From an uncultured Candidatus Peribacteria bacterium (lineage in GTDB: Bacteria > Patescibacteriota > Gracilibacteria > Absconditabacterales > Absconditicoccaceae), in NCBI GenBank assembly GCA_964422855.1, contig CAYRCS010000001.1, positions 4,957 through 68,956 of the forward strand: DNA of 64,000 nt. Reading direction: 5' to 3'. Below are positions 20,656-48,772 of the stretch, in pieces. Positions within the stretch are counted from its first letter, which is position 1, and each line of letters opens with the position of its first letter. The position numbers were made by a program, and so were the translations under genes. Below the pieces are notes generated by a model. The model saw only the letters and a list, made by a program, of their open reading frames with translations, was not told where the DNA came from and searched no databases.

Positions 20656-20751
20656 ACGCTATTTATTTAGGATAATATTCTATTTACTCCACCATTGCAA
20701 GCCACCTACATTTCACTACAACACATAACAATTTATCCTCTACTCGTGGCA

Positions 20752-23700
20752 ATGTGAGCGATCAAACGATTCAAAGATATATCTTCAGCAGATGTAGGTA
20801 GCTGTGGTGGTAAATGAGCATCTCTTGGTGAATTAATGAGAGCCTGATTTCCCTTTGCTGATGGCTTTGTCCTCACGATAGAAGCTTTTGGTAAAAATCA
20901 TGATGAGTGGGCAGATGCTGTCTATGCAGCATATGATCAACTCAATACACAATACATAGCAGTCAGAAGTAGTGCGACCAAAGAAGACGGAATGGATGAT
21001 AGTTTTGCATGACAATTTGATACGTACCTATTCGTCAATAGAGAAACATTGATCGAGCAAATCATGGAATGTCACAAGTCCATCGACTCCCCTCGTATCA
21101 TCGCATATTGCGAGTCTAAAGGAATCAATATATCAGAAATCAAAGTAGCTGTGGTTATCCAAAAAATGATCAATAGCGAAGTAGCGGGTGTGGCTTTTAC
21201 CGTCAATCCTGTGACCAACAATAGAGATGAAATCATGATGGAATGATGATTTTGACTGGGAGAAGCTGTCGTATCAGGAATGATCACTCCGGACAATTAT
21301 ATTTGGAGTAAAGCTAAACAATCTATCACCGATAAGAGCATTAGTCATCAAACAAAGAAGCTTGTATTGGATATGAGTAAGTGAGGCACTATAGAAGAAA
21401 GCGTCGAATCGACCATACAAGAGGTACAAAAATTATCAGATAGTCATATCACGCAGCTTGCACAATTATCAGAAAAAATAGAACAACACTATGGCAAGCC
21501 AATGGATATCGAATGGGCTCTGGAAGATGGTAAACTCTATATCTTACAGGCTAGACCTATTACTACGCTTGTGACACAAATACCACAGACAAATATCGTC
21601 CCACGAGAAAAAGTACTCCAAAGAAATTTCCCTGTATTGGGATATACAACCGGAGCATATTATGAATTTCATGGGATACATTTATGACCCGTAATATGGA
21701 AACGTGATCGTGAGATCATGGCTACGTATCATGTACCACAAGTTTTTCTGATACAAGATCCGAGAGCATACTATACGACCAATGTACTTGATATTATCCA
21801 AGATATCAATGAGGATTTTGAAAAATCGACCGATCAATACAATCAAGAAATATATAAAGCAGTGCGTATCGAACCAGGCAATAGCTATGATGACTTAGCA
21901 GCCCTCAGTGAGATCCACAAACTCAGCTATGGCTTGATGCTTTTGTGATTTGATCTGGTGATAGACATCAAATCCTACATCGATAAACTCGTGCCTGATC
22001 AGTCCGCATCATTTTTGTGATTTCTCGAAACACCTATACAAAAAACTGCTATCCAACGCGAACAGCATGCCATCAATGCGATTAGAAAAAACAATGCACA
22101 TAACGACACGATAGAGCTCGAACAACTTACCTATGATTTTGGGTATATTCATCAAGATTATCTTGGCGAAGCTTGGACTGTAGAAAAATATAAAGAGCTA
22201 TTGGCTCAAGAAGATGCGCTCACCTCTCATATGGATGAGTCGTACGATATCAGTCACCTGTCGGAATACGAACAGCGACTTATTCGCATGTTCAAGAAGA
22301 TGGTCTATATGTATGAAGAATGAAGAAACGCGATGGTCAGATGTATGCGAGCGATCAACAAAACAAGCAAAAAACTTGGCATCGATACAGACAAAATTCT
22401 CTATATGACGGTATCTGAATTTGAAGAAATGTGTCAGAAGCAAGACAAAAATCTCATACTATCTGACGAGCTCTTGGCAAAGAGAAAAGAATGATTTGTG
22501 GCTCATTTTGATAATGGCATATATACCGAATATACTGGAAAACAAGAAGTAGAAAAATTTTTGTCAGAGACGGGTATTATGCATTTCTGGGACAAAAAAA
22601 ATATAGCAGTAGACGAATTAAAGTGAACTGTAGCATTCCCATGATATGCTATAGGAAGAGCTCGCTTAGTCTTTGATCAAAAAGATGCAAATGCCGTACA
22701 AGAATGAGAGATACTTATATCTCCCATGACGCAGGTAGAGTTCCTCTGATGAATGCGTAGATGTGGCGCTATCGTTACCGATGAATGAGGCATCATATGT
22801 CATGCAGCAATCGTCGCTAGAGAATTTGGGAAGCCCTGTATACTCTCTGCTAAAGATGCAACGAGCGCTATCAAAAATGGGGACTTGGTAGAAGTAGATG
22901 CCAATATGGGAGTGGTAAGAATTGTGGAGAAGTTTCAAGATAATCTATTGGCGAAGGCGCGAAAGAAAAATCGAGCAGGTCGATGGAGTTTGTTGTCATG
23001 CTATTATTTTGGCAATCATTATACGCAATCTCTCCAAGAGAAAATGGGAATATCATTGGAAGAAGCCATCATAATAGTGCACAAATGATATAGCGCATGT
23101 TATTTCCTCGAAGAACACAAGAAAAAATTTGGGACGCACTTTGCAAAAATGGCTCAAGAAGATACTACTCTTCTACAGTGATGGTCTGATAAACTTATAG
23201 AAAATACTGACATCATACTTGGGACGATCAAAGAACTCATGGGAAAAAACTTTGAAGCCGGAGATATGGATAGATTTTTGGAAGCATTCTACAACTACTC
23301 AGTCTATCATCGTATCATTAAAGTCTCTGTAGACTATCTTAGTGCTGATATATTGAGTACTGCTCTCTCTCCATTTGAGAAGGCTCGTGTATACGCAGAG
23401 CCTGTCTATGAAAATACTGAAGTGTATATGAGATATGTAGCGGATGCTTTGGGCAAAAAACATAGTATAGCTTCTGAGTTAATATTAGCGACAAGTCCAG
23501 AGCAATTTGCAGATATATTGGTATGAAAAATACCTGATATAAGTGTATTGCAAAATCAATTTGAGAGTTCTGTCTTCTATATCCATCAAGGAAAAACCCA
23601 ATATATTTCCTGATCTAGCGCACAAGAATTTGAACAGAAACTCACTGCAAAAAACGAAGCACAAGAAACGATCAGTGGCCAAACTGCATATCCAGGTAAA

Positions 23701-25503
23701 GTACAATGAAGAGTAAGGATTGTCCTTGATCCTAAACCTGATACAGTTTTTGAAAGATGAGATATATTGGTAACTGGGATGACCAGACCCGAGTATCTAC
23801 CATTGGTAGAAAAATCTGCTGCCTTTGTCACTGATGCAGGATGAATCCTCTCTCATGCAGCAATCACTGCCAGAGAATTACACAAACCTTGTGTTATAGG
23901 AACAGAAGTAGCGAGCAAGATTTTGCAAGATGGAGACTTGGTAGAAGTAGATGCTGACAGCGGGACGGTGAAAATTTTGGAAAAATCTGATAAAAAAAAA
24001 GATAGTGCCGAGATCTGGCAGGATTATCTAGGACAAAAACTCAAACATATGGGTATCCGATGAGGAATTTGTCCACTCGATATAGGTACTTGGTATCCTG
24101 TAGAAGTGATGGAAAACTTGTACCAACTTTTCTGAGCATATAGCTCATCAGCGGTCATCTGTGACCTAAGACAAGAGATACCTACCCAATGGGTATTTCT
24201 CAAACAAAATGGACTGGATGGTTTTGGTCAGCGTGTTGATGAGATCAGAAAAAATGATCCACAGTGATTTGGCAAACTTTTGGTGAGAGTCTATGATACC
24301 TTGGACGAGGTAAAAAAATATTTTGTATCGCAAGATATTGGATCAATAAAAAATCTATCGGATATGGATCTAGCTCAGCGTTTTGTAGATTATAGAAGCC
24401 AGGTACATAAGCTTAGTGTGTACGATCAGATTGTATGGCGCAATGAAACATACTTGGATAAGCAACTCCATGAAAACATACAATCGCTTTGATTGCAGCC
24501 AAATACTGAAGAATACAATAAGGTATTGTTTGCTCTCATCATGCCACTCAGACCATCGACGGTGATGGAAGAAGAACAATCTGTGGTTAATTATGCTCAA
24601 TCCATACAACAAAGTAAAATATCACTTGCACAAGCAGCCATAGAACTAGCAGAACAATTTGGTTGGCTGCCAGCATTTGTAGCTGGTGATGAGTGGTGAT
24701 CAGATCACTACACTCCTCTATTAGAGAAATATATATCTAGATCTTCTGAAGACCTTGCTACAGCGTCACAGAAATATGTTGATCACACGACATCTACACA
24801 AGCTTTGATACACGAATATACCAAGCAGTATACTATATCTGATGCCGTATTGCAGATATGTAGTGATTATGCTCTAGCTATTGACTCCAGAAATGAAGCG
24901 GAATATTATCTTGGATTTGCAAGGAGATATCTCAGACCGGTTTGTCAAACTATCGCTCAGAGATTGTGAGTGAGTGAGGAAGAGTTGAGATTACTCTATG
25001 AAGATGAAGTACCACAATGCATGAGATGAGAAAAAAATATACATGATATTTTGGCAACCAGAAAATGAAGCTATACAGCATATTGCTACGATGCACATAC
25101 GCAAAAATCCTATACTTTTGATGGCGATGTTGCTAAAGCATTTTTGGAACACTGTAAGTCTACACAGGAAGAAAACAAAAAATCGATACATGTCGCGGCA
25201 AGCAAATGAGTGGCTCAGTGAGTAGTAAGAGTTCTCCATGGGCCATATGAAAATGATAAAGTACAGCCATGAGACATACTCATAACACAATCCACAACCG
25301 TTGATTATCTCCCAGCGATGAAAGTATGTGGTGCAATTATCACCGAGGCAGGATGACTTACCTGTCATGCGGCAGTAGTAGCTCGTGAATTGTGAGTTCC
25401 ATGTATCGTATCGTATGCATGAGCGATGACGGAGTTTAAAGATGGGGATCTGATAGAGGTAGATGCGAATACTTGTCTTATCACAACAATAAAAAGAGCC
25501 TAA
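20752..25503 (+). CDS. 1583-aa multidomain phosphotransferase: PPDK_N ATP-grasp domain plus three units of central domain and PEP-utilizer phosphohistidine swivel domain
   Basis: I read frame 1 codon by codon from 20752 to 25503 and found no TAA or TAG, and about 40 in-frame TGAs. ATP-grasp motifs: VGSCGGKGASLGEL, VRSSATKEDGMDDSFA-G-QFDTY, AVVIQKMINSEVAGVAFTVNP, GGFGLGEAVVSG, DIEWALEDGKLYILQARPIT. Swivel domains lie at about 22621..22935, 23671..23985 and 25195..25500. Each has GG-x-x-[SC]-H-A-A, with His codons at 22801, 23854 and 25366. Confidence 0.8.
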
Positions 25504-30740: not shown

Positions 30741-32411
30741 ATGACTCCATATACTATCCAATACGACAACGAAACTGAAGATCTGCTTACCAGATTGCTC
30801 AAAATAAGAAATATCGACTGTGCGATAGATGATTTTCTGGATCCAAGTATTGCCACCTATTGGACCAATCCATTTTTACTCAACGATATGGACAAAGCCG
30901 TCCAAAGAATCATCACTGCACTCAAAAATGATGAACATATTTCTATCTTTGCCGACTATGATGTGGATGGCGTTACGTCCAGTTTCCTCTTGCATACATT
31001 TTTCACAAGATTCCTCAAATACCCCCATGTTTCTGTGCATTATCCTGATAGACTCAAGGATGGTTATGGTATCAAAAAACATCATATCGATAGTATAGCC
31101 GCATCTGGGCACAAACTTATCATTACGGTCGATAATGGCATTACTGCTGTTGAAGAAGCTCTCCATGCCAAGTCTCTTGATATCGATCTGCTCATCACTG
31201 ATCATCACGAAGTGTCAGAGAAAGGTGTGCCAGAAGCATATGCTGTCGTCAATCCGCAAGTATCTCCTCAATATGCTTTCAAGTGACTGTGTGGCGCTGG
31301 TGTGGCATTTAAGCTTATCTGTGCCATGATGGAGACATCTTCCTGGGACAAGGAAAAGAAAAATATGACCTTTATGTATCTCCTCCCTATCGTCGCTATA
31401 GCAACGGTGGCAGATTGTGTCCCTTTGGTCAAAGAAAATAGAGTCTTGGTCAAGAAGGGACTCGAACAGATAAACAAAAACCGTAATGGAATACCTAAGT
31501 CACTCAAAGGTTTGTTGGATTATCTCAAGATAACCAAACCTATCGATAGTTTTCATATCTGATTTATGATAGGCCCCAGAATCAATGCTGGAGGTAGAGT
31601 TGGTAGTCCACATGATAGTCTCAATATCTTACTCAAGACTGGTGAAGAACAGCTTGCCCACTTGGATAAGCTCGAAGGGATGAATACCGAGAGAAGAAAA
31701 CTCCAAGAAACTGCATACAAACTCGCAGAACAACAAGTGGATCATGATGAAAATATCCTCATCGCTGTCCATGATGAGTTCCATGAATGAATTATAGGAA
31801 TAGTCGCTGGTAGATTGGCAGAAAAATACAATAAGCCGACCGTTGTCATGAGTATCAATCGTGAAGAAAATAAAATCGTAGCCAGTCTGAGATGACCGGA
31901 TTATTTTCACGTGATGCATATGCTCAATGAAGTAGGAACATTGCTTACCCGTTATGGCGGACATAAGCAGGCCGGAGGCATGAGCTGTCCTTATGACCAA
32001 GTAGATCAAGTGATAGCAAAAATCTATGCATATGGACGCGCACATGTTACTGATCTAGATCTCCTCAAAAAATTGACAGTAGATACAACTATCCAAGAAC
32101 ATGAACGACTTCCTGAAACATTGGAAAAAATAAGTAAACTAGCTCCTTTTGGGATTGGCAATGAAGAGCCTGTTTTTCTCATCAAAGGCCTACAGATTGC
32201 CCATATCGAAAAAGTCGGGACGAGAGGCAATGGCCATCTCAAACTCCATGCACATCTCGGAACCAAGAAGATTACCAGTATGTTTTGGTCCAAGTGACAC
32301 CATCTTGATCAACTTAAGAAAGGTACAACAGCTGATGTTATCGGGAAAATAAGAGCCGACGACTTCAACGGCGGCTATTTCATCGACGGGGTGGATTATA
32401 TTATAGAGTAA
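30741..32411 (+). CDS. recJ: single-stranded-DNA-specific exonuclease RecJ
   Basis: Track ORFs 30741..31286, 31302..31562, 31566..31790 and 31911..32297 share a frame. DHH motifs: IFADYDVDGVTS, ITVDNGI, ITDHH, GPRINAGGR and GGHKQAGG. Confidence 0.9.
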
Positions 32412-33484: not shown

Positions 33485-35257
33485 TTACATATAAAGTATA
33501 TCATCCCACGGTGTTCTATACAATCCTTCGCCCAATCTTTTCTGGTCAATATGATGACCGATGAAGCCAATAGATCTAGCCAATTCAAATAGTGCGTTAA
33601 ACAAATCCGCATCGATATACGTTTGCATATCATCTGCTGACATCTTCATGGATGCCATCATATCCAGCAACATAGCTGCGATATGACCGTCTACGTTGAG
33701 TATGAGGTTTGGTTTTTTCATCGTCGTGAGTGCTTCTACTTCTTTAGCAAAAGTGATATGTTTTTGTGAAGGAAATTTTTTGCTGAGTTTGAAGAGTATG
33801 TCACATCTCTTATCTGGATTGTAGATTGATTTAATTTTATGTCCGATACCTGGGATGAGAACTCCTTCTTTTTTCATCGTATCGATAAATTGTTTGGCTG
33901 TTTGTTTGTTAGTGACTGCTTGGAAGAAATACTGCCCTGCGCCAGAAATCGCTCATCCAAAGCGTGGTCCTATCGTTAACAAACCTGATGCCAAACTACT
34001 CACGACGTCCTTACCGGCTCTGGCTGTGACGATGGCGTTGCTTGCTCAACTCACTGCTGGACCGTGATCTGCGGATAAGATAATCGCAGTGTTGATAAAA
34101 TCGAGTGCATAGTCAGGCAATTGTTTCTTAAATCGGAGATGTCCGATCACATTTGCAATGCTGCCTTTTTTGACGAAATCAGATATATTTTTGCCGTTAT
34201 ATGTAAGCTCGTCTCCTCTCTCATCGGAAATCGTAGATGTAATGACAGTCGCACGACGTGACGCGAGTGTCGCTAATTTTTTCTGAACTCATGCATCATC
34301 TTTTTTGGTCATAGAAATTTTGAGAGAACTAAATACTTTGCCTATCGTTTTACCAAAATCATCAAATGACTTCGGGACAAAAGCTCCTTGCTGTGCAAGA
34401 TATTTGTTTTTGAAACTTGCTGTCTCGCGTTCTGCGTTTGCTTTGGCTCCTGCATGACCAAACTGCACATCAGATTTGATTTTTTCGGCTGCAGTACCTG
34501 CTGCTCGAGCCACGAGTGGTTTCTTGATCTTCTTGGCTTTGATCATATCTGCGATCATGTTTTCATCTTCATTTCCTACTTCTCACAATAGCACAATCAT
34601 TTTGATCTCAGGATTTTTCTCGTATCGCGAGATGACTTGCTGAAATGTCGTCATCGGATATCTATCTCATCCTACTTGGATCGCAGTATGTACGCCATCA
34701 GTGACCTTGCTGATCACACGACACAGCTCATTCATCATACCACCGGATTTGGTGACTAATCCGACTGATCCTGCTCTATATAACTTAGAAGCCATGATGT
34801 TTTCCATCGATCCACCTGTGTTACCTACACGCAATGCACCTGCTACGATACCACCAACAACTGATGGACCTATCAAATTGATGTTATATTTTTTGTTGAG
34901 AGCAATAATCTCTCTGGTATCTTTTTCGGGGATTCATTCTGCTACGGTAAACATATTTTGAAATAATTTGGTTTCGAGTGCTTCTTTCACAACGGCTGGT
35001 GCTGTACGATGTGATGCGAAGTTGATCAGTGTATCAAAAGGTGCGTATTTCTTGAGATCGCTCCACTCATTTACCTGTGGGACAAATATTTCTTTGTCGC
35101 CAAAAAATACCTTCTGCGGTTTGCATTCGTTATCAGAGACCATGATGGCTTTGACGCTGGGATCACGCCCACAAAGAAAATCATAGTCCAGCATACGCTG
35201 CAAGACATCGACGTGATTGCCGTAAAATATACAATATGATGATGAGGAGAATTTCAT
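33485..35257 (-). CDS. aclA: ATP-citrate lyase large subunit (CoA-ligase plus citryl-CoA lyase domains)
   Basis: Track ORFs 34934..35257, 34667..34876, 34289..34558 and 33485..33877 share a frame, and I checked the gaps for stops. Motifs track ACLY closely: [31 protein letters not shown] (catalytic His), [36 protein letters not shown] and [10 protein letters not shown]. Confidence 0.9.
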
Positions 35258-35259
35258 GG

Positions 35260-35943
35260 TTATTTTCTGTTAATAATAATTTCAGAGACTTCGATATTTT
35301 TTGGAAGAGAATACAATTGTCGGACTAATGCTGCGACTTGTTCTGGGTCTATAAATATAGATGTATTTTCATTGCCTGTAATGATACTCATCTGTTTTTG
35401 TCTGCCCTTTTTACCTGTATTACCTGGAGTTTCCATACCTCCTGGATGGACACCGATTACTCTACATTTTGTTTTCTTGAGCTCTACTTGGAGGTTCTCG
35501 GTAAATCATCTCAATCCTCGCTTGGCACTACTGTATGCTGTAAAGTGTTCGTATCATTTAAATCAGATAGTTGCGCCTATATTGATAATGTCTGCTTCAT
35601 TTTTTTTGATGTTTTTGATAAGTCAGGTTGTGAGTACTAATGGAGCCAATAAATTTATTTTCATCGCTCGATCTGCGCTATCGAAATCTATATCATCAAT
35701 TTTTTCTGCTTTGCCATCACCTAAGTTATTTATCAAACATGCAAAGTCTGAGTGATCTCTCTGTATCTCCTCTACTGCAAATTGCAGTCACTCTTTGGTT
35801 GTAAGATCTGTAATTATATGTGCAATATCGAGGTCAGACTTGGTTCTGGAAATTCATACCACATCACATCCATTTGCCAAAAATTGCTTAGCCAAAGCAT
35901 ATCCCAATCATTTACTTACTCCTGTGATGATAATTTTTTGCAT
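35260..35943 (-). CDS. short-chain dehydrogenase/reductase (SDR)
   Basis: No track ORF exists; it has 7 or more TGAs, including the Gly-rich loop. The code-25 translation is MQKIIITGVSK-G-LGYALA...NIGATIG...YSSAKRGL. I checked the frame line by line for stops. Its ATG abuts the aclB stop, and its TAA lies 2 nt before the aclA ATG. Confidence 0.8.
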
Positions 35944-37131
35944 CTAGAGTTTGATATTACTAAATATCTCTGTCAGATAATGATCTGCATCTTGGATGAC
36001 ATAAGGAATCTTGTTTTTTTCACAGACTTTTGCGATCATCGCAAGGCCTTTGATATCGTTGATACCTCCACGACGAGCGAGGATATGGATATTTTTTTTA
36101 CGAAGTTTGTCGGCATATTCGTCTATCAGATCTGCGAATGGTTTACAGAGTGCATCGATACGTGTGAAGTTGGCTATTCATCAGACAAGGCAGAGATACT
36201 GCTTCTTGGCTGTATTTGCTAGCATCAAATCCAAGATTGTTTTCACATACGCTCTATTGCTATCTTCGTCTGGGTTCCCTGATAATTCACCATAGTTGGC
36301 TACTTCATCGAGCAGTCATTTGTTGGAAAGGGTATCCATCGTGATCACGGACGCTCCTCCACCTCATAAGATAAGTCGGATACGACCCGTGGGATTGATG
36401 ATAGTGAGTTTGAGACTTGCGCCTGTTTTTTCGTCCACGGCAGCGATATATTCTTCTGCGGGATAGGATTGTGTGCCAAATGGCTTAACTCGGTCGATAT
36501 GTTTTCGTTCTGGCTGTCTATATGTTTCGCAATTATCGACCTTTGCCACAGTGTCCAATAAATGAATGTTGCCTTTGGCATCAAAGACAAAAGGATTGAT
36601 CTCAAGATACGCAAAGCCGTATGATCTGTATGCTTCCAATACCTTAATGACAAAATCATGGAGTTTTTTGGGAACTTTGACGAGGTCTTTAGTGGTTAGT
36701 GAGGCGATTGGAGAAATTTGTATCTCTGTCACTTTGGACCAATTTTCCTCTACTTCTACGCCTCATTCGGTGCTAAAGTATATAATATCAGCGTCTCTAG
36801 TGGATTTGATAGCGAGATAGTACTCTTCCTGGTGTGGGACAAATGGTTCTACGAGGAAAGTATGGAGCTTGTCGGTCACTCCTTTGATAATGAAATTCTT
36901 GTTCGCATATTTCTGGACTCGTGCTGCGAGTCATTTGGCGTCTAATTTGACCCCAACCAATCATAATTTTCCTCTTTTACCAAACAGTTGATCAGGCTTG
37001 ATAACCCGCTGTCAGGCTGGGATGGCTTTGAGATCTGCTGTATTTTGTACCAGATACCCTTGATATTTTTGCCCCAGATGGGCGAACACAATCTTCTTGG
37101 CATCATATTCGCGGATGGCGACTTGAGACAT
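35944..37131 (-). CDS. aclB: ATP-citrate lyase small subunit (ATP-grasp)
   Basis: Track ORF 36364..36732 extends both ways through TGAs, and I checked the frame line by line. Motifs: VIKPDQLFGKRGKLGLVGV, FLVEPFVPH, LEINPFV, AEEYIAAVDEKTGASLKLTIINPTGRI, GGGGASV, ANYGELSG, IANFT and ARRGG. Confidence 0.9.
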
Positions 37132-37197
37132 AGACCGTATTTTTAGTATAAATCATACTTCCCATCAGCTATATCGTTTTGGGTATTTTTTACAAAT

Positions 37198-37233
37198 AAA
37201 AAAAAGCCGCACCACCGAAAACAGTGGATTGGC
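37198..37233 (-). terminator. terminator-like hairpin plus U-run downstream of the small ORF and upstream of aclB
   Basis: On the minus strand: GCC..CCAC / GTGG..GGC stem with an internal loop, followed by T8. Confidence 0.4.
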
Positions 37234-37258
37234 AAACAAATGTGTGTGCACAAAAGCG

Positions 37259-37396
37259 TTAAACTGCTTTCATGGTAGTGATGAGCTTCTGTGTACGATG
37301 CTCACCGTTTCTTTCGACAGGTACTCCGTTATCTAACCACTGACGAGTAGCTAAATCATACGTGAGGTTAAACCTTGTTTTTGGTTTTTTTTTCAT
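37259..37396 (-). CDS. small basic hypothetical protein (45 aa)
   Basis: ATG at 37396 to TAA at 37259, translating to MKKKPKTRFNLTYDLATRQWLDNGVPVERNGEHRTQKLITTMKAV. It is followed by its own terminator-like hairpin. No homology recognised. Confidence 0.3.
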   Translation of the reverse strand: MKKKPKTRFNLTYDLATRQWLDNGVPVERNGEHRTQKLITTMKAV

Positions 37397-37506: not shown

Positions 37507-39603
37507 ATGGTATATTTACTCATCATGGTCCTTATGAAAACATTACGTATTGGTATACTTATCGGGTTTATAGCCTCACAAATGCTCCAGCCTATGGTCT
37601 GGGCTACTGACATCAATGATGCGGATGTAGATCCTGCACTTATCCAGCAAGCCGTAAACTCTTCCTTTACTACTGAAGAACAAGCAACTGAAGTCGATGC
37701 TCCTACGGAGACGGCTATTGCTGATTATGAAGTAGAGCTCGATGAAGATAGTTTGGCTTTTGATGCGGATAGTGCCGCTAGCAAACTCAGAGATTTGCAA
37801 GCATCGGTTGATATCATCACTGAGCAGCTTTTCAAACTTGATGAACAACAAAGAACCGAATCTGGATCTATCTCTGATAGCTATAGAGAAACCAGAACGG
37901 AGATCGTCAATGTGATCAATAACATAAAATCTACAACCAATGAAGTAGAACAACTCCTCAGAAAGACTGCTATCTACCAAAAACAAATAGAAGAATTTGG
38001 TGCCAAAGTAACAGGAACAAGAGGTGACATAGCAAATCTCAAGATCTATCTTGCGGATTTCTCTGCAGCTTTGTACCAAGCACAACAGCATCTGTATACC
38101 GAAGATGGTAGCGAAATAGATGACGTCAAACTCATGATATACTCAGACAATATCGCTCGTACTATAGCAAATGACCAACTCATTACCTCTATGGTCAAAG
38201 AGATGACCGATGGTATAAATACTTTGGAAGTTAATGAAGATAAACAACTTGATACACTCAAAAAACTCACACAACTCAGAAACCTTGCGAGAGCAAACAT
38301 CTCTATATACAACCAAGAATTGGACAAGTTAGAACAAAAAAGAGACTATCTTGGACAGTTTATGGAATTGTATCAAGGAGATACATTCCTCTCTCCAGCA
38401 GGTATTGACGAGATATTTCAAAATAGAAAATCTGTCTTTAAGGCAACCAATACATTGTTGGACAATATAGAATCAAAAAAATATGGTGTTAGTTTTGATA
38501 TCGCTGGATCATTGGCAAAACTTGCAGAAAAAGAAACAGATAAGCTCGAGCACGTGATTGCATGGCCAGTGTATCCTGTAGAAAAGATCAATACTTTCTT
38601 CTGAGATGAAAAATTTAGAGAAGACAATGGCTTCCCACACTGGGGAATCCAGATAGAAGCTGCACAAAAAACTCCAGTCTATGCTGCTCGTGATGGTGTC
38701 GTATATCATGTGACCAATAATGACGGTATCGGTATTAACTGGATGATGGTCATCCACACTGACGGCTACGTCTCAGTCTATACCTATATGAATACATCTG
38801 TCGTAAAACCTGGTGACATAGTGCAAAGAGGACAATTGCTTGGCTATAGTGGTGGTGAACCTGGAACCAGAGGCGCTGGTTTTGTCTCTCCTGGAGCCAA
38901 CCTTACCTTCTCTATCTATAGAGATGGCGAAGCCCTTGATCCACTCAAGTTATTGGATCTGGCAGTAGTAGCTGACAAAGACATGCTTCCTAATGAATAT
39001 CACATCAAATTCCTCAGAGATAAATACGCAAGACCTATCGATATTACTGACTTAGCATTTGCTGAAGGAGAAACTACTGATGATAGAGCTATTGCATTCC
39101 TCAAGAGTTATGGAGTTGGTATCTATAGATCACTTACCTTCTGGAACAATGCAGTCAAAGATACCAACATCGATAGAGATGTAACTATCTGTATTGCCTT
39201 TGCCGAATCTACACTTGGTAGATATCTATCAACTGATGGTAATATCGGTAACGTCGGTAACAACGATAGATGAGATAGATTTGCCTTTGGTGGTGCATTG
39301 GCAGGTGCTAGAGCGATTGCTCAGACACTCAACAACCAACACTTGGGTGATTATCATACCATCATACAATTATCTAGATACGGTAATGAAGATGGTAAAA
39401 TCTATGCCTCATCTCCTATCAACTGGCAGACAAATGTTACGAAGTGTTTGTCGCAGATTAAATGATTTTATGCTCCAGAAGACTTCCCGTTCAGAACAGC
39501 CCCAAATCCAAATAAAGACAACATCCCTGAAAACGATACACCAGCCGCAGCTAAGTTTGATTGGGAACAAGTGAAAGTTGAAGGAAAACCTGTAAGCAAA
39601 TAA
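37507..39603 (+). CDS. secreted coiled-coil M23 (LytM) peptidase with a C-terminal lysozyme/transglycosylase-like region
   Basis: Track ORFs 37414..38604 and 38710..39273 share a frame. Signal-like MKTLRIGILIGFIASQMLQPMVWA (alternative start at 37534). M23 motifs: HWGIQIEA, IHTDGYVSVYTYM and GQLLGYSGG. Later ICIAFAESTLG resembles a lysozyme-like catalytic Glu motif. TAA stop at 39601. Confidence 0.8.
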
Positions 39604-39610
39604 AAATAAA

Positions 39611-39636
39611 AAAGCACCCTGACCGGGTGCTTTTTA
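39611..39636. terminator. bidirectional rho-independent terminator between the M23 gene and glmS
   Basis: AGCACCC-TGACC-GGGTGCT flanked by A- and T-runs. Confidence 0.7.
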
Positions 39637-39640
39637 TATG

Positions 39641-41461
39641 TTATTTAACTGTTACGCTCTTCGCTAAGTTTCTGGGCTTATCAATATCTTTGCCAAGATG
39701 GTCTGCGGTGTAGTATGATAAGAGTTGCCCTACGACCGCACCCAAGAATGGATAGAGCGCTTCGATTGTCTCTGGGATAGTGATATGTCGATCTGATACA
39801 ATTTCTTGGTCTGAGATACTGAGTATTTTGCCTTTTCTTGCTTTAACTTCTTGGATGGTCGAAAGATTTTTTTCGTACATCGCATCGTGTGGCACGAATA
39901 CTATGGTTGGAATTTTTTCGTCGATCAATGCCAATGGCCCATGCTTGAGTTCTCCTGCCGGATAGGCTTCGGAGTGGAGATAGGTAATTTCTTTGAACTT
40001 CAAGCTAGACTCAGTAGCGATAGGAACATGATAATGTCTGCCGAGGAAGAAGTAGTCTTTGTATGCTGACAACTCTTCTGCTATAGATTTGATAGCATCG
40101 GTTTGATCGAGTATCTGTTCTATCAATGAAGGAATTTTTTCTAACTCGGTGAGTATCTGCTCGTATTGTTGGTTGTCCAAATTTCTCTTGCGACCCAAGT
40201 AGAGAGCCAAGAGCAATATACAGGTAATCTGTGCAGTAAATGCTTTGGTCGATGCAACACCGATCTCTGCGCCAGCTCTCGTAAAGAGACCATGATCGGT
40301 CAGACGCGAAATGGTAGACCCAACAACATTGACTATACCAAACGTCTTGCCTCACTTGGATTTAATATATTTGAGACACTCGATACTATCAGCGGTCTCG
40401 CCGGATTGAGAGATAAACACATAGAGCGTATCATCAGCAATATTGATATGTTTGTATTCATATTCGGATGCTATCTCGCAATACGAATCTACTCATACCA
40501 AATTTTGCATCCAGTATGTCCCCAATCGTCCTGCATTATATGATGTTCCACAACCCACGAAAACGATCTTCTTGAATTGCTCATCCTGCATACCGTGAAA
40601 TGCTTCGGCCATCAAAACATTTGTATCAAAATTGACACGTCACTTACAGATACGTCTGATGATAGCTGGTTGTTCAAATATCTCCTTGAGCATAAAGTGC
40701 TTGTAGTCACCTTTGGATGCTTGGAGAGCATCAATATCCATGATCTCAAAATTCTTTTTCATAGAGACTCCATTGGATTTGATGATATATTCGTTGCCTT
40801 GGACATGAACTAAGTCGCCGTCTTCCAGGAAGAACAATTGCTCTGCATAACCGGCTAATGCTTGTTTATCTGAAGAGAAGAAGAAATCGTTTTTGGCGTT
40901 ATAACCAAAAATAAATGGACTACCCAGTTTTACCCCTATCATCTCACCTGGTGCATAATCACTGACGATCAACATCGCATATGCTCATCTAATTTGTGTG
41001 AGGCATTTTTCTACTGTCTCGAGGAAGTTTCCTGTCCAGTTTGCATCGAGTAAATTTGCAAATACTTCGGTGTCTGTCTCTCCGTAAAAAGCATATCCTT
41101 TGGCTATAAGGTCTTGTTTGAGTTTGTGATAATTTTCGATGATACCGTTGTGGACGACGTAGAAGTGGCCATTTTTATCGTGGTGTGGATGGGTGTTCTC
41201 GTCCGTAACTCCTCCATGTGTCGCCCAACGCGTATGTGCGATACCCATCGTATAGTTGGCATCGTGTGGTACTTGTGCAGTGACTTTGGCAGCTAGGTTG
41301 GATACTTTGCCCACTGCTTTGAATGTTTTGATATCTGCAGCTTGATCAGATACTCGCATACCTGCAGAATCATAGCCACGGTACTCGAGTCTTTCCAATC
41401 CATGTAACAAGATCTTTTCTGCACTATTTTTGGCTCATTTATATCAAAATATACCACACAT
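39641..41461 (-). CDS. glmS: glutamine--fructose-6-phosphate aminotransferase
   Basis: Track ORFs 40985..41410, 40640..40975 and 39641..40216 share a frame. N-terminus MCGIF-G-YKG (TGA at 41444..41446). C-terminus ...LAKSVTVK. TAA stop. Confidence 0.95.
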
Positions 41462-41487
41462 ATATCGTTCATTATCCTAAATAAATA

Positions 41488-41988
41488 TTACAATCCCGGA
41501 AGCGTTGTTATCAAAAAATGCACTACTGGATCTACATCTACTCCATAGACCAGAGCTCATCATAATGCTCCTATATATGTCACTGCTATAAGTCCAATAA
41601 CTGCTAGCACAATATGGAGATATCGTTTTTTGATGTATGTAATAAGAAGATCAAGATAGTGTGTGACTTTATATTTTTGTATAATACTATCCCATCTCTG
41701 TACAATATAATCCCATACATATATAGCCGCATTGATACCAAATACTATCGTAGTTATATTCGCAAATAGTTCATGCATTTCGAGTAGATCTGTTTCTCCG
41801 ATCTGATCTGCTGCCATTTCACCTGTACTCAAATCAATTTGTGCACCTATTCGTCCAGCTACAAGCAATACTGTCTTCACAAGATGCCATGGTGAATCAA
41901 TATCTTTTTTGGGAGTACATACTTCGATCACAACATATAAGACGAAAAATGCGATAGGGAAATGTACAAATAATGGATGGATATTCAT
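41488..41988 (-). CDS. DUF2231-like integral membrane protein
   Basis: MNIHPLFVHFPIAFFVLYV is the typical DUF2231 N-terminus. Track ORF 41560..42030 extends through two TGAs to TAA at 41488. Confidence 0.6.
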
Positions 41989-42013
41989 ATCTATAGATAA
42001 TGAATAAAAATTA

Positions 42014-42574
42014 CTACAGTGGACATGCAAATGTCTTTGCTAACTCCGTCAATGGCTGTTGGCCAGGGCTATTGATTCACATGCCGACTCGCGTTGGATA
42101 ACCGGTAACCTTGGCGGCCTGACATTGTCATGGAGAAAGATCGCAATCGACATAACGAATCGATGCAAATGCATCGCCAAATAATTTCTTCTGGTTTTGG
42201 CAGTGCGGACATCGTTCGGTACCATACATGATTACCCCTTTTTGGGACAAACACAAGGCCAATGATTCTGCCTGAAAAATGTCAGCTACCGACTGGAGTA
42301 TTGCTCTTGTGCGATAATTAAATGTAAGTTTGGGACCCTGCTCGATAGTACGCACTAAGGCAACAAGTGTTTGTTTTGTTGTGTCTGTTTTGGAAGCGAT
42401 TCTGGAAGCAATCATATCTGCAAAAGTATGATCTGATTCAGATAATACATAAGAATCTATACTTGTTTGGATGCATTTTTTTTGTTGGTCTCCTTGGAGA
42501 GTTGGGCAATCAGTGGCATAGGACAATCCCGGCAGAGCAATCAATGCCAATAGCATAAGAAAAATCTTTTTCAT
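42014..42574 (-). CDS. secreted thioredoxin-fold protein (CPHC motif)
   Basis: Signal peptide MKKIFLMLLALIALPGLSYA. Contains YGTERCPHCQNQK. Extends through TGAs to TAG at 42014. Confidence 0.65.
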
Positions 42575-42594: not shown

Positions 42595-44070
42595 TTATCT
42601 AGTGATGTTGAATCCGTTTGGTGTATCTTCGATATACCATCACTGCTGTGCGAGATTTTCTCTGATCATATCGGCAAGTTTGTAGTCTTTATTTTTCTTG
42701 GCTTCGACGCGTTCTTGTGCCAATGCAGTAATTTCTGCTGGTATCACGAGCTCCTCTGCTTCTTCAAACAATCCGAGCTTCAAAACATTGTGTTCCCATC
42801 GTTCTAGTACGACAAACAATTCTTCTATATCAAAGTTGAGGATATCTTTACTCGCAACTCACAAATGATAGTGGATATGTGCTAGTGCATTTGGTGAGTT
42901 GAGATCGTCGATATATTCGGTGATAAGTTTTTGGTGGAGTTCTTTGACAAAGGGATCAAGCAATTGTTCGCTCAATAATTCTGCAGACAATGTAAGCAAA
43001 CTAGATCCCATCGATCACTTCTTGTCTTTGATGAGTGATTGTATTTTTTGCTTGAGATTTTTTCTGGTGCTTTTGGCAGCTTCGAGATGCTCTCGAGTGA
43101 AGTCTTGAAAACTACGATAGTGTGCGCTAAGGAAAAAATAACGCAGATCCAATGCATCAAATCATTTTTTTTCTAATCAGGGAAGACTGAGATCGTCGCC
43201 CGCTGATTTTGATACTTTTTTGCCGTCGATATTGAGAAACTGTGAATGCATCCAGTAATTGACCCACTTATGCTTATGTGCAAATGAGCATTCGGACTGA
43301 GCTATCTCGTTGGTGTGATGGATGGATATATGATCTACCCCTCCTGTATGGATATCAAAATGATCGCCAAGCGTGGCTTGCGACATGGCGCTACATTCTA
43401 TATGCCAACCTGGGAATCCTTTGCCTCGTGGAGATTCTCGTTCCATCTGTCTTTGTTCACCGACTGGAGAAAATTTCCAGAGTGCGAAATCTGTAGGATT
43501 TTGTTTGCCTGCGTCGTCTACTCTCTCACCAGAGCTCAATCATTCGAGGTGTTTCTTATAATTTGGTCACATGAGTTTGCCGTAGTCATCGATCTTGGCT
43601 GTATTCATATATATACCGTCTCCGTCAATTATATAGGTCAATCATTTATCGACCAAGGTCTGGACGATCGCTATCTGTTCGGGGATGTAATCAGTTGCTT
43701 TGGGGTGTTGGTCGAACGATATATGCAATTCGGTCAAATATTTTTTGAAATTTTCTTCATATTTCTTGGCTATATCTCGTGCGGACAATCATTCGCGACG
43801 AGCGCCTTTTTCCATCTTGTCTTCACCATGATCACCATCGTCCGTGAGATGTCCGACATCAGTGATGTTCATCACATGCTTCACGTTGTATCCACAGACA
43901 TGTCTGAGCACATCTCCCAAAAGTCCACAAAAAGCAAAATATCTCAGATTACCCACATGTGGATCACTATAGACGGTAGGTCCACACGAATAGACGCTAA
44001 CGAGCTTGGGATCAATAGGTGTAAACAGTTCCTTATTACGAGTGAGTGTATTGTAGATCTGGAAGTCCAT
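42595..44070 (-). CDS. cysS: cysteine--tRNA ligase
   Basis: Track ORFs 43789..44070 and 43177..43539 share a frame. Motifs: [15 protein letters not shown] (HIGH), [21 protein letters not shown] and KVSKSAG (KMSKS). Confidence 0.95.
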
Positions 44071-44149
44071 GATGATGCATATATTAAATATATGTGGTAT
44101 ATATAGATATGGGGTGGGGAAATGCTAGGATTTTTTTCTCTAATGTTTT

Positions 44150-44177
44150 GAGCTCCCTACCAAAAAGTAGGGAGCTC
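44150..44177. other. perfect 11-bp stem hairpin (GAGCTCCCTAC/GTAGGGAGCTC) at the left edge of the TGA-free island
   Basis: Read directly from the sequence. Lies 15 nt downstream of the stop of ORF 44193..44582 (minus strand). It has no flanking U-run on that strand. Confidence 0.5.
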
Positions 44178-44192
44178 AGTTAGATAATACAT

Positions 44193-44582
44193 CTACAGCT
44201 TCAGGAAATAGCCGCCATATCGAGTTTGTATAAATCTTAACTTCTTAAGATACACACATAATTCGATAAACAGTTCTGCTTTTGCAAGAGATCCTGTTTT
44301 TTCCTCTAATTCTTGCTCAAGCTGCCATCTATTAAGAGACGATTTAGGAATTAGAGAGGCCAGTGCGGCATCTACCTCGTCTGATAATGCAATAGCCGCT
44401 TTGTGGTCCACAACAAATGTTTTTGGTCTGGGAGATAGCCAGTGCCAAATATGCCACCAACGCTTAGGAGGCAATGTAAACAAATTTGAGGATACGGTGA
44501 TGGTTTCTGCTGTGTGGGATTGGCCTTGGCCAGCTTCCCATATAGCTGTTTCGATTTTTTTTAGTAAATTCTTCATAGGCAA
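44193..44582 (-). CDS. hypothetical protein (129 aa), TGA-free, Trp-rich
   Basis: Intact track ORF with a TAG stop. Its GC content is higher than the window average. Divergent from the permease gene. Confidence 0.5.
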   Translation of the reverse strand: MPMKNLLKKIETAIWEAGQGQSHTAETITVSSNLFTLPPKRWWHIWHWLSPRPKTFVVDHKAAIALSDEVDAALASLIPKSSLNRWQLEQELEEKTGSLAKAELFIELCVYLKKLRFIQTRYGGYFLKL

Positions 44583-44641
44583 TGTTTTTGTTTAGTATGC
44601 TGAGTGTACACATAAAATGTTATGTTTCAATACATATTTCA

Positions 44642-44669
44642 TTGACTTTTATCTTGTTTTGACTATAAT
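44642..44669 (+). promoter_or_regulatory. putative sigma-70 promoter (TTGACT-16 nt-TATAAT) for the permease, giving a roughly 150-nt leader
   Basis: Hexamers at 44642..44647 and 44664..44669. Confidence 0.5.
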
Positions 44670-44821
44670 ACGTTTTGGTCAGATGGTCCTTAACAGATTT
44701 ATCACAAAACTCCTGATATTGCGCTTGGCAATGTTATGGTTTTATTAAACGCCAAGCGCAAAAATCATTATAAAAATAACCAGGGATCTACAAATCTCTA
44801 CAAAAAACAAAAAGAAAAATT

Positions 44822-46273
44822 ATGAAAAAGTATCAAATCCCCGAGGACCAGAGAAATCTGGTTGCTGCCGTTAGATCGGCGGCTATTGTATTGTTGGTAG
44901 GGTTTCTTGGCTATCTTGCCGACCCTGTTGCAATCCTCAACGCCTTTTTTCCCATCATGGTGTTAGCGATAGCCCTTGGTGGAAGTGTGCCTAAGTTACA
45001 ACACTTCTGGCACAAGAACTATCCTGTAATACTGCTGTCACTGGCTTTTGTATGTGCAGTTGCTTGTATCCATGCTGGATATAGCGGCTATACGTATTCA
45101 GCTATGTATGGCTATGTAGGATTTTTGTTGAGTGTGCTTCCTGCCCTTGCACTCGGCAAAATTATGTATTTTAAGGGTGGAGAGGCCGGCTATGCCTCCC
45201 CTAAACAAAACCTTACTATGTTGGTAATTGGTATGTTGATGGGAAATATAGTAGGAACTGCTGCTGTAGTAGCAATGCTTGGACCTACCTGGATACGGGC
45301 CAACCGTAGTCATTGGAAGAACCATCACTTTGCTTTCTTTATGTTACTGGTATTGAACATGGGCCCTGCCTTTGTTCCTACTGGACCGCCTTTACTTGCT
45401 GCTCTACTTAAGGGCATCTCTCCAGATTTCTGGTTCATCAATGGCTATTATGCATTGATAACTATGGTATGTTTGGTTGTGGTGTTTTACTTAGTAGATG
45501 CTCATAGTTTTGACAAGCCCAAGAAGCAAAAGCTTGGGTTGTCATTTAGCGGTGCAAAGTACTGGCCTGCACTTGTGATGTTTTTATTCACCACACTTAC
45601 GATTGGAAGAGGTTTGCCGTTTGATAGCAGCATTACCCCGACTTTGAATAAGTGGCTATCAAGTGTTACTTCGAGCAAGTTTGTTCTTGACTCAAGTATC
45701 GACTTGATACGGTGGGCAATACAAATCATTGTGTTGGCTTATGTGCTGAAGGTAGCGTGGAAAGTAAGTACTGAGGCTCGCAAGAGTTTCGGTAGCTATA
45801 GCTGGAGTTTCTTCTCGGTAAGTAACAAAGAGTTGGTTGTTGTATTCTTGGCACTGTTTATCGCTTTGCCTCCCATCGAACATGCTGCTGCCCACTTTGT
45901 GGAAGCACATCCGTTGGGCACAACAACCAAGGCGTTTGCCATCATGGGCTTTAGCTCTGTGGCAGATAACTTTATCGCTTTGTTACTTGGTATGAGCTCA
46001 GAGATGGCTCAGCAAGGTTGGACAGACCCTGCCTCTTTGGAAACACTTGGCCGGACTTCCCTAATTTTAATGGGAATGTTTGCTATGTATGGCGGTGCGT
46101 TGACCTATATAGGCAATGCACCCAACCTTAGTTTCCTTGAGTACTACCGTGAAATTCGTCAGGCAAATCCGAATATGCCTGAGGAAATGTCGTTTTTCGG
46201 ACTTACTGCCAGGATGATGCCGTGGGCTGTTTTAGCTTCACTTATTTGTCTTGGTTTAACCTATATTCTGTAA
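44822..46273 (+). CDS. polytopic permease, tentatively ion-transporter (ArsB/NhaD/CitMHS-like) superfamily
   Basis: Uninterrupted 483-aa track ORF with about 11-12 hydrophobic segments and a TYIGNAPNL motif. All 36 Gly residues use GGN codons and there is no in-frame TGA. GC is about 47% in the first 100 nt, against about 37% in recJ. Confidence 0.8.
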   Translation: MKKYQIPEDQRNLVAAVRSAAIVLLVGFLGYLADPVAILNAFFPIMVLAIALGGSVPKLQHFWHKNYPVILLSLAFVCAVACIHAGYSGYTYSAMYGYVGFLLSVLPALALGKIMYFKGGEAGYASPKQNLTMLVIGMLMGNIVGTAAVVAMLGPTWIRANRSHWKNHHFAFFMLLVLNMGPAFVPTGPPLLAALLKGISPDFWFINGYYALITMVCLVVVFYLVDAHSFDKPKKQKLGLSFSGAKYWPALVMFLFTTLTIGRGLPFDSSITPTLNKWLSSVTSSKFVLDSSIDLIRWAIQIIVLAYVLKVAWKVSTEARKSFGSYSWSFFSVSNKELVVVFLALFIALPPIEHAAAHFVEAHPLGTTTKAFAIMGFSSVADNFIALLLGMSSEMAQQGWTDPASLETLGRTSLILMGMFAMYGGALTYIGNAPNLSFLEYYREIRQANPNMPEEMSFFGLTARMMPWAVLASLICLGLTYIL

Positions 46274-46318
46274 CCATCTGACCGTGGTTCTGACGTGAAT
46301 TTCCGTCCAGAATAGAAA

Positions 46319-46350
46319 GGGTGCTGCTGTTTCAGTAGTGCCCTTTTTTT
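46319..46350 (+). terminator. rho-independent terminator after the permease
   Basis: GGGTGCTGCT / AGTAGTGCCC stem (with G-U pairs) followed by T7. Confidence 0.6.
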
Positions 46351-46414
46351 GTTCTTGTAAAATCTGCTTACAAGACTATAGATGATAATGTATTTTTAGT
46401 CTTTCACATACCAT

Positions 46415-47164
46415 ATGAAACAAAATGTCTTATTTATCCTCGCTATCCTCCTCTTATCAGGAAGCTTGGTCTATATTGGTCAACAATTGAGTAATTCTGG
46501 TTCCAACCCGATGGGTATGAGCAATACCGTTTCTGTAGCAGGCGAAGGCAAGACAAAAGTAGCTCCAGATACAATGCTTATCAGTTTATCAGCCACAGAA
46601 TTATCTAAGACTACTGAAGAAGCTCAGAAGGTAGTAAATACCAAACTTGCTCAACTCAGAACTATCTTGCAGACATTTGAGATACCTGACGACAAGATCG
46701 CCACACAACAACTCAGTGTCTATCCAGAATATGACCGATCCGATGGTAAAAATACCATCATCGGATACAGAGCAACACAAACGCTTGATGTGCGTGTGAC
46801 TGGAGACAAATATGAAGACAAAGGCGCACAAATTATCGATGAAGCAAGCAAAATTGGTGGGATCAGTGTCTATCAAACATCATTTATCGTCGATGATATG
46901 GATGCAGCATTGCTCGTAGCTCGTGAAGCAGCATTTGCTGATGCGAAGACCAAGGCACAACAATTGGCAGATCTTGCTGATGTGGATCTTGGTGATCCTG
47001 TAACTATCACTGATCAAAGTTATCAAAACTATCCTATGCCTCCTATTATGTACGCTAAAAATGAGATGGCTATGGATGCAGGAGGAAGTATATGATCCAC
47101 ACAAGTCAATCCTGGAGAGACGGAAATTACTGTCAACCTCCAAGTTATATTTGAACTCGAATAA
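46415..47164 (+). CDS. SIMPL (DUF541) domain protein, secreted
   Basis: Track ORF 46415..47095 extends through a TGA to TAA at 47162. Signal anchor MKQNVLFILAILLLSGSLVY. Contains GYRATQTLDVRV and the C-terminal ITVNLQVIFEL pattern of the SIMPL family. Confidence 0.8.
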
Positions 47165-48244: not shown

Positions 48245-48772
48245 ATGAACAAAATCATCTCTACAACCAAAAGTAGTGTGTTTGTAGGAATTGGAATAAT
48301 GATAGGCTTATGTACTGCAGCTTCTATTGATGATATGGTAAGCTATGGTCTGATATTTATGCAGCTTCTTTCTCTCGGAGGGATTGGTGCGTATGCTGTG
48401 ACGGTTATATTTTTACCGCATCTTAACAACAAACCAGCATCTGAAGACAAAAGATTACTATATGCTCAAGTATCATTGATAGCGTCCGTAAGTATCTCGG
48501 TATATGTCTTGTACATATATCATCTAGCCTACGTTGACCGTACTCTGATTATGAGTACGCTCTTGTCGCTATGGGAGTATTTACGAGCTGAAAATCTGTA
48601 TACTGCTGATAAGCAGTGGAAAACCAAACTCAACAATATCATTTCAATCCAATTCATCACACTACTTCTAGCCTCCTGCCTACCGATAGGTTTGCAATTG
48701 GCTCAACAATTATGGATAAAGGTGCTCACGTTTCTGTGAGCGCCTTTTATAATTTCTCAAAAAGTTCAGTAA
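48245..48772 (+). CDS. integral membrane protein of unknown function
   Basis: Track ORF 48245..48739 plus an 11-codon read-through tail. Four to five hydrophobic helices. Confidence 0.5.

Follow-up and report, generated by a model that had tools for sequence, protein, structure and literature searches.

How a gene devoid of TGA codons came to lie in a genome that reads TGA as glycine is the question raised by a permease gene within a 64,000-nucleotide stretch of DNA (hereafter the window; contig CAYRCS010000001.1 of assembly GCA_964422855.1). The permease gene, together with a short divergent open reading frame (ORF129), occupies the interval between cysS, which encodes cysteinyl-tRNA synthetase (CysRS), and a gene for a SIMPL-domain protein. 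An initial annotation, made from the window alone, described the pair as a GC-elevated island of two genes that had been transferred recently from a standard-code organism. The analysis presented here indicates that the permease was very probably gained by horizontal transfer from a standard-code donor into a lineage of the Absconditabacterales (SR1) that uses genetic code 25, while the claims that the transfer was recent and that it brought in two genes hold only in part.

The genetic code of the host was examined at the level of the window and of individual proteins. ORFs of ≥100 amino acids (aa) summed to 108 kb over six frames under code 25, compared to 39 kb under code 11. The in-frame TGA codons of glmS coincided with glycines of Escherichia coli GlmS at five of six sites in an alignment to a solved structure, and those of cysS, translated as X and aligned to solved structures, fell on glycines at conserved CysRS positions. 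The top non-self matches of the CysRS (54–59% identity) were labelled Absconditabacterales, SR1, and Absconditicoccus praedator. Because of the TGA-to-glycine alignments and the CysRS matches, the window is assigned to an Absconditabacterales (SR1) lineage that reads TGA as glycine and is without close sampled relatives. Amongst the other genes of ≥150 aa (n = 44), TGA accounted for 22.7% of the pooled glycine codons (median, 19%; 5th–90th percentile, 6–40%). Every gene of the genome ends in TAA or TAG, and the TAA and TAG stops of the permease and ORF129, initially read as part of a transfer signature, are not diagnostic. Public protein predictions for the code-25 lineage (e.g., P0121) were made with TGA as tryptophan (code 4), such that glycines encoded by TGA are shown as W and the identity of the CysRS to its own database entry is 98%; this systematic annotation error was exploited in the present analysis to recognize proteins of recoded origin.

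The permease gene has no in-frame TGA, with all 36 of its glycines encoded by GGN (GGA, 11; GGC, 13; GGG, 2; GGT, 10) and a TAA stop, and its initially reported coordinates and counts were correct. With a null distribution for gene statistics drawn from the 64-kb window alone, the probability of observing 0 of 36 glycines as TGA was 9e-5 under a plain binomial, 0.0034 under a beta-binomial that accounts for heterogeneity from gene to gene, and 0.014 under a GC-adjusted logistic model. Considered only against the GGA codon, the share of TGA (TGA/[TGA + GGA]) was 0/11 in the permease compared to 0.48 in the rest of the window (P about 7e-4). The GC content of the gene (44.6%) exceeded that of all others in the set of 45 genes (mean, 38.7%; standard deviation, 2.6; z = 2.3), a modest elevation, and GC at third codon positions (GC3) was 0.45 compared to 0.35 for the host. 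The first 100 nt of the gene have 47% GC, as first counted by hand; the value of about 37% given for recJ as a neighboring reference should be 41.4%, and recJ is not a neighbor, the adjoining gene being cysS.

Synonymous codon usage, scored with the glycine codons left out and conditioned on the amino-acid composition of each gene, placed the permease at z = −7.8 under the host model, compared to −3.6 for the next gene. The permease was fitted worse by the host codon model than by a model of uniform codon use, and its preferences differed from those of the host for lysine (AAG, 76% vs 29%), glutamate (GAG, 58% vs 26%), proline (CCA, 4% vs 53%), valine (GTC, 0% vs 25%), leucine (CTC, 3% vs 26%), and arginine (CGG, 27% vs 1%). 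The difference from the host is qualitative and amounts to more than a shift in GC3. The top four tetranucleotide deviations amongst 1-kb segments of the 64 kb all fell on the permease (z up to 4.7), with native composition before ~44.2 kb and after ~46.3 kb. The codon-usage and tetranucleotide checks that had been suggested for the locus single out the permease as the strongest outlier in the 64 kb.

Two other interpretations of the compositional signal were considered and set aside. High expression of the permease is unsupported, with a codon usage unlike that of the gene for ribosomal protein L9 or any other gene. The L9 gene, which is the only other TGA-free gene of ≥150 aa, was tried as another island and rejected: the encoded protein has a long K/A-rich tail, 0 of its 5 glycines are encoded by TGA, and the gene shows unremarkable codon usage (z = +1.1). 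It falls within the tetranucleotide anomaly that ranks second in strength for the window (57.0–58.4 kb), a signal that reflects low complexity and not transfer.

The locus was compared to those of three relatives (L007, L008, and L011; CysRS, 56–60% identity), which also use code 25 (ORF coverage, 0.93–0.95 under code 25 vs 0.14–0.25 under code 11). The gene order in all three was UvrB ... rSAM – SPOUT – DUF192 – SIMPL / CysRS – GlmS ... M23, with SIMPL orthologs (46–48% identity) that adjoin cysS. The spacer between the divergent SIMPL and cysS genes measured 163–255 bp in the relatives compared to 2,344 bp in the window, and tblastn of their loci under code 25 recovered neither the permease nor ORF129; the window carries an insertion relative to these loci. 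A resemblance of the flanks to the uninterrupted spacer of the relatives was tried as a guide to the ends of the insert and rejected, as local alignment scores were no better than those of shuffled controls. Within the sampled population, the exact permease protein occurred on no fewer than 8 contigs, drawn from 5 or more independent samples and assemblers, in a constant order of glmS, two small genes, cysS, gap, permease, SIMPL, SPOUT, and rSAM. These strain contigs were 98.4–99.9% identical to the window and differed across the island by one intergenic single-nucleotide polymorphism (SNP; 44633). The insertion is younger than the split from relatives at ~59% CysRS identity and older than the diversification of the sampled population, and in the suggested check of related strains the island was in all sampled strains and missing at the locus in the three relatives.

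The permease matches the Pfam family CitMHS_2 (PF16980; 102.2 bits; cut-off, 25.7; E = 3.5e-29) over model positions 12–412 of 448 and keeps 29 of 29 family-invariant residues, including TYIGNxxN, DN, and GPP; no NCBIfam model matched. The top Foldseek matches of an AlphaFold2 (AF2) model (pLDDT, 78; pTM, 0.80) were Pho90, NaDC3, VcINDY, and YdaH, with TM-scores of about 0.45–0.5. The Pfam match, the invariant residues, the length, and the elevator-type fold are all features shared with CitMHS_2 / ‘UIT6’ / NhaD-ArsB-like permeases of the Ion Transporter (IT) superfamily, and the protein is predicted to be an intact elevator-type secondary transporter of this superfamily (CitMHS_2 / ‘UIT6’ / NhaD-like). 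On this evidence, it is most likely functional and coupled to Na+ or H+, with an inorganic ion or small anion as its substrate. The name ‘NhaD-like Na+/H+ antiporter’ is a database label only, carried by homologs that are 25–30% identical.

The distribution of the family points to organisms with the standard code, the taxa to which all detected homologs belong. The best 80 carriers in GTDB belonged to the Verrucomicrobiota, Bacteroidota, Ignavibacteriota, Planctomycetota, Proteobacteria, and Firmicutes (23–35% identity), with none from the Patescibacteria amongst the 80 listed, which did not include the source genome either. The best-scoring homologs examined (L006, L009, and L010) lie beside kdpABC/kdpDE in standard-code genomes of 57% GC; the kdp or AA-permease-Usp neighborhood of the best-scoring homologs is lacking around the permease of the window. 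A word-indexed search of 5.8e9 clusters returned nothing above 81 bits beyond the self cluster and no homolog from SR1 or the Gracilibacteria, an exhaustive phmmer search of 1.84e9 representatives likewise returned no SR1 or Gracilibacteria homolog, and a scan of JGI metagenome contigs returned only the identical permease gene. Of 244 homologs inspected at 21 conserved glycine columns, none had more than one W, the signature of a recoded genome. Because no homolog carries W in place of glycine in this manner, the family appears not to be detectably present in any other recoded lineage. All 11 tryptophans of the permease are encoded by TGG, which makes a code-4 donor unlikely. The independent composition tests and the lack of any family trace in recoded lineages together firmly favor gain over loss, and the proposal of a standard-code donor is supported by the codon usage, the tetranucleotides, the insertion relative to the relatives, and the hosts of the homologs.

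Under this reading, the donor would have read TGA as a stop, and the permease would have been accompanied by the promoter, leader, and terminator that serve it and possibly by ORF129, the divergent small ORF. Insertion into the short, divergent cysS–SIMPL spacer would have followed the split from the nearest sampled relatives. Because a standard-code gene has no in-frame TGA and this gene ends in TAA, it could have been translated at once in the recoded host. The synonymous sites would not yet have come to equilibrium with the host, leaving TGA-encoded glycines still missing and non-host codon preferences in place. Since GC3 stands at 0.45 compared to 0.35, TGA is absent despite 11 GGA codons, and codon preferences run contrary to those of the host, the composition argues for an acquisition that was recent on the scale of synonymous turnover.

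Several observations weigh against this reading or parts of it. The absence of TGA, taken alone for one gene among ~45 in the window or ~1,000 in the genome, is suggestive, a moderate and not a decisive signal, and, by the TGA and GC signals alone, the permease could be equaled by a handful of native genes in a genome of that size. No donor was found among ~15 billion proteins and the donor clade is not resolvable: the best non-self match amongst the 1.84e9 representatives searched with phmmer scored 87 bits at 29% identity, with none exceeding 37%, and a comparison of codon usage to the 80 carrier genomes was uninformative (best, −1.20; uniform, −1.246). Members of the family are ~39% identical to each other, whereas the permease has a median identity to them of 25% (23–27%), placing it on a long branch. 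No strain-level polymorphism for presence or absence was seen, with the island in all sampled contigs from at least 5 samples, which speaks against an acquisition that was recent at the strain level. The window has no tRNA, no integrase or transposase was found, and a search for flanking direct repeats gave nothing above chance-level short matches. The spacers of L007, L008, and L011 are mutually conserved, and the three are probably one clade, so synteny alone does not discriminate between a single gain and a single loss; the more distant L012 and L013 (A. praedator) do not preserve the gene order around cysS, and the event is thus not polarized by an outgroup.

The low identity of the permease to its family (25% vs 39%) is hard to square with a transfer in the very recent past, short of a donor lineage that is itself divergent and unsampled. 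A standard-code donor of this kind is the simplest reconciliation, since an old acquisition followed by fast protein evolution would be expected to show amelioration. The description of the transfer as recent is upheld by synonymous sites that remain off host equilibrium and tempered by the lack of a donor above 37% identity, the long branch, and an island that is fixed and invariant in the strains. It is rather unlikely that the permease was caught shortly after crossing the code boundary from a deeply divergent, unsampled standard-code lineage that was possibly the host or prey of the recipient. If that were true, the absence of TGA-encoded glycine would act as a ‘recoding clock’, in which the state of GGA-to-TGA conversion would date acquisitions in code-25 genomes, and TGA-free genes would point to unknown hosts of these epibionts.

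The permease could instead be ancestral to SR1 and lost in the clade of L007, L008, and L011, with a composition that arose by chance or by gene-specific selection (e.g., for the translation of a polytopic membrane protein). As the relatives seem to form one clade, a single loss requires no more events than a single gain; the TGA share drops with rising gene GC amongst the genes of the window (Spearman, −0.36), as reflected in the GC-adjusted P of 0.014; and a long protein branch is typical of fast-evolving proteins from the candidate phyla radiation (CPR). Set against these points, the codon usage of the permease (z = −7.8) departs in a direction that is not a simple GC shift, and the other hydrophobic proteins of the window (GRAVY > 0.4), membrane proteins that carry TGA, have codon z values of −3.5 to +1.4. 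No homolog was found in other code-25 lineages among the ~15 billion proteins, and a long-resident gene should have reached the synonymous composition of the host and seen some of its 11 GGA codons turn into TGA. Ancestry followed by loss is disfavored and is considered unlikely.

A source in another code-25 lineage, or in a phage or mobile element of such a lineage, that rarely uses TGA is very unlikely. Gene transfer amongst CPR lineages is reportedly common (PMC8406219), the divergence of the permease is usual for CPR proteins, and the donor was not identified, but no homolog carries the recoded-genome signature, and neither blastn against plasmids and phages nor a PHROG search revealed similarity. 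Further, L007, L008, and L011 are heavily TGA-recoded and the genes of the window use TGA for 6–40% of glycines, against which 0 of 36 would be an unlikely outcome. A chimeric contig or binning artifact that joined SR1 DNA to that of another organism would account for a composition unlike the flanks, but its probability is negligible and it is excluded because the same junctions recur in the at least 8 contigs (98.4–99.9% identity) from five or more independent samples and assemblers, with flanking genes continuous with conserved SR1 synteny. Horizontal transfer from a standard-code donor is the reading retained for the permease, and the remaining features of the locus are considered with it in mind (Table 1).

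Table 1. Coordinates of the permease locus and of other features of the window discussed in the text.
Feature	Coordinates	Strand	Description
cysS (cysteinyl-tRNA synthetase)	42595-44070	-	PDB CysRS matches, E = 8e-80; 9 in-frame TGA; native left flank
Perfect hairpin	44149-44178		12-bp stem, 6-nt loop; fold z = -5.9; T-run on neither strand; single copy in window
ORF129	44193-44582	-	129 codons; 0 TGA; 5 Gly; stop TAG; likely start ATG 44576, giving 127 aa
Weak divergent promoter-like site	44630-44603	-	Consensus scan
Predicted sigma-70-like promoter of permease	44642-44669	+	TTGACT-16-TATAAT; 11/12 matches; consensus scan only
Permease leader	44676-44821	+	~150 nt; downstream of near-consensus promoter; fold z = -2.5
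Leader hairpin	44719-44761	+	In permease leader; stable, GC-rich 11-bp stem
Permease (CitMHS_2)	44822-46273	+	483 codons
Permease intrinsic terminator	46314-46355	+	16-pair stem (46314-46348) and T7 run; fold z = -6.6
SIMPL-domain gene	46415-47164	+	Native right flank; codon z = +1.2; 1 TGA
1602-aa ORF	20695-25503	+	40 in-frame TGA (38% of its Gly)
recJ	30741-32411		
ATP-citrate-lyase-like region	33485-37305	-	At least 1 gene; one at 33485-35257 (by eye, Ligase_CoA/Citrate_synt-type)
glmS	39641-41461	-	
Small genes (three in the two segments)	41488-42574	-	With TGA
	48245-48772	+	With TGA; codon usage z = -3.5
Ribosomal protein L9 gene	57451-58062	-	TGA-free

The evidence that ORF129 belongs to the same island is moderate. 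As initially described it contains no TGA, but this carries no statistical weight because it has only 5 glycines. Its coding score (0.052) lies within the native in-frame range (5th percentile, 0.025; out-of-frame 95th percentile, −0.087), its codon usage was the most permease-like amongst 48 ORFs (z about 2.6), and Markov log-odds of permease versus host reached the 99th percentile at 44351–44650, over its 5′ half. ORF129 thus looks coding and somewhat permease-like, but it is an ORFan, with no matches beyond self in the protein database and no family match in Pfam, NCBIfam, or PHROG, and it is skipped by most gene callers (uncalled in L001–L005). An AF2 model (pLDDT, 50) was uninformative. 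From its sequence features, the chances are about even that ORF129 was transferred together with the permease, perhaps as a divergently transcribed regulator.

The two structures initially said to bracket the island, a hairpin and a terminator, are both real and strongly folded, with a stem of 12 bp and not 11 bp in the hairpin, and most plausibly represent normal transcription-unit ends that lie close to the insert's edges, not boundary repeats. By its position, the hairpin would close the transcription unit of ORF129 at its 3′ end, insulating cysS, and it may lie near the left edge of the insert. The terminator sits near the point at which the atypical segment gives way, on its right, to native composition. 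Within the permease leader, the GC-rich hairpin is possibly an operator or an RNA regulator; no Rfam families were detected in the window or in the leader.

Other variation was observed around the locus. Contigs L001, L003, and L004 are ~99.8% identical to the window outside of tracts with ~9% divergence, which cover glmS and the next gene (39600–41650), and 13 SNPs are clustered at the end of the SIMPL gene (47080–47120). The divergent tracts and the SNP cluster look like imports by homologous recombination from a relative of ~90% identity, and the intervening 5.2 kb, including the island, has one SNP. Three further small genes in the vicinity, two of them hydrophobic, are not at the syntenic loci of L007 and L008, and one of the three is a moderate codon-usage outlier (Table 1); the cysS–SIMPL neighborhood is seemingly prone to changes in gene content. 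The ATP-citrate-lyase-like genes are located between glmS and M23 in L007, L008, and L011, whereas in the window at least one such gene is found beyond the M23 peptidase gene, on its other side, a placement that points to local rearrangement. Elsewhere in the window, the 1602-aa ORF contains three copies of the mobile-domain motif of PEP-utilizing enzymes (G[IL]xxHAA[IV]xARExxxPC), an unusual triple architecture.

Horizontal transfer into SR1 is already documented, and the permease locus is a clean, small example that is confirmatory and not surprising; the absence of TGA is an expected corollary of a standard-code origin and not a new phenomenon. In Vampirococcus lugosii (Absconditabacteria), 126 horizontally transferred genes and a type III CRISPR-Cas system acquired in the same manner have been described, and TGA recoding has been discussed as a barrier to the exchange of genes in both directions (PMC8080830), while continuous remodeling of the proteome by transfer has been reported for these lineages (PMC8406219). 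The permease resembles the V. lugosii cases in being, very probably, a gene from a non-CPR donor in a small SR1 genome with TGA recoded to glycine. Those cases were inferred by phylogeny and have identifiable donors, whereas the permease was recognized by composition, synteny, and TGA absence, with no donor clade. The locus also shares with classical genomic islands an atypical GC content, codon usage, and tetranucleotide composition, an absence from syntenic relatives, and a discrete insertion between conserved genes; unlike them, it spans ~2.2 kb with one or two genes, and no tRNA target, integrase, insertion sequence (IS) element, or direct repeats were found. A literature search found no paper that used TGA-free status explicitly as a marker of acquisition.

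For the biology of these organisms, the permease indicates that the recoding of TGA to glycine in SR1 is no block to incoming genes, provided that the gene does not end in TGA. Where phylogeny is uninformative, genes acquired by recoded genomes can be picked out from their TGA content and codon usage together. Determined per gene across the Absconditabacteria and Gracilibacteria, the TGA share of glycine codons could serve as an inexpensive way to order acquisitions by relative age, and clues to donors or hosts might follow. For the lineage itself, the gain of the permease equips a metabolism that is very reduced and dependent on a host with a predicted transporter for an ion or anion.

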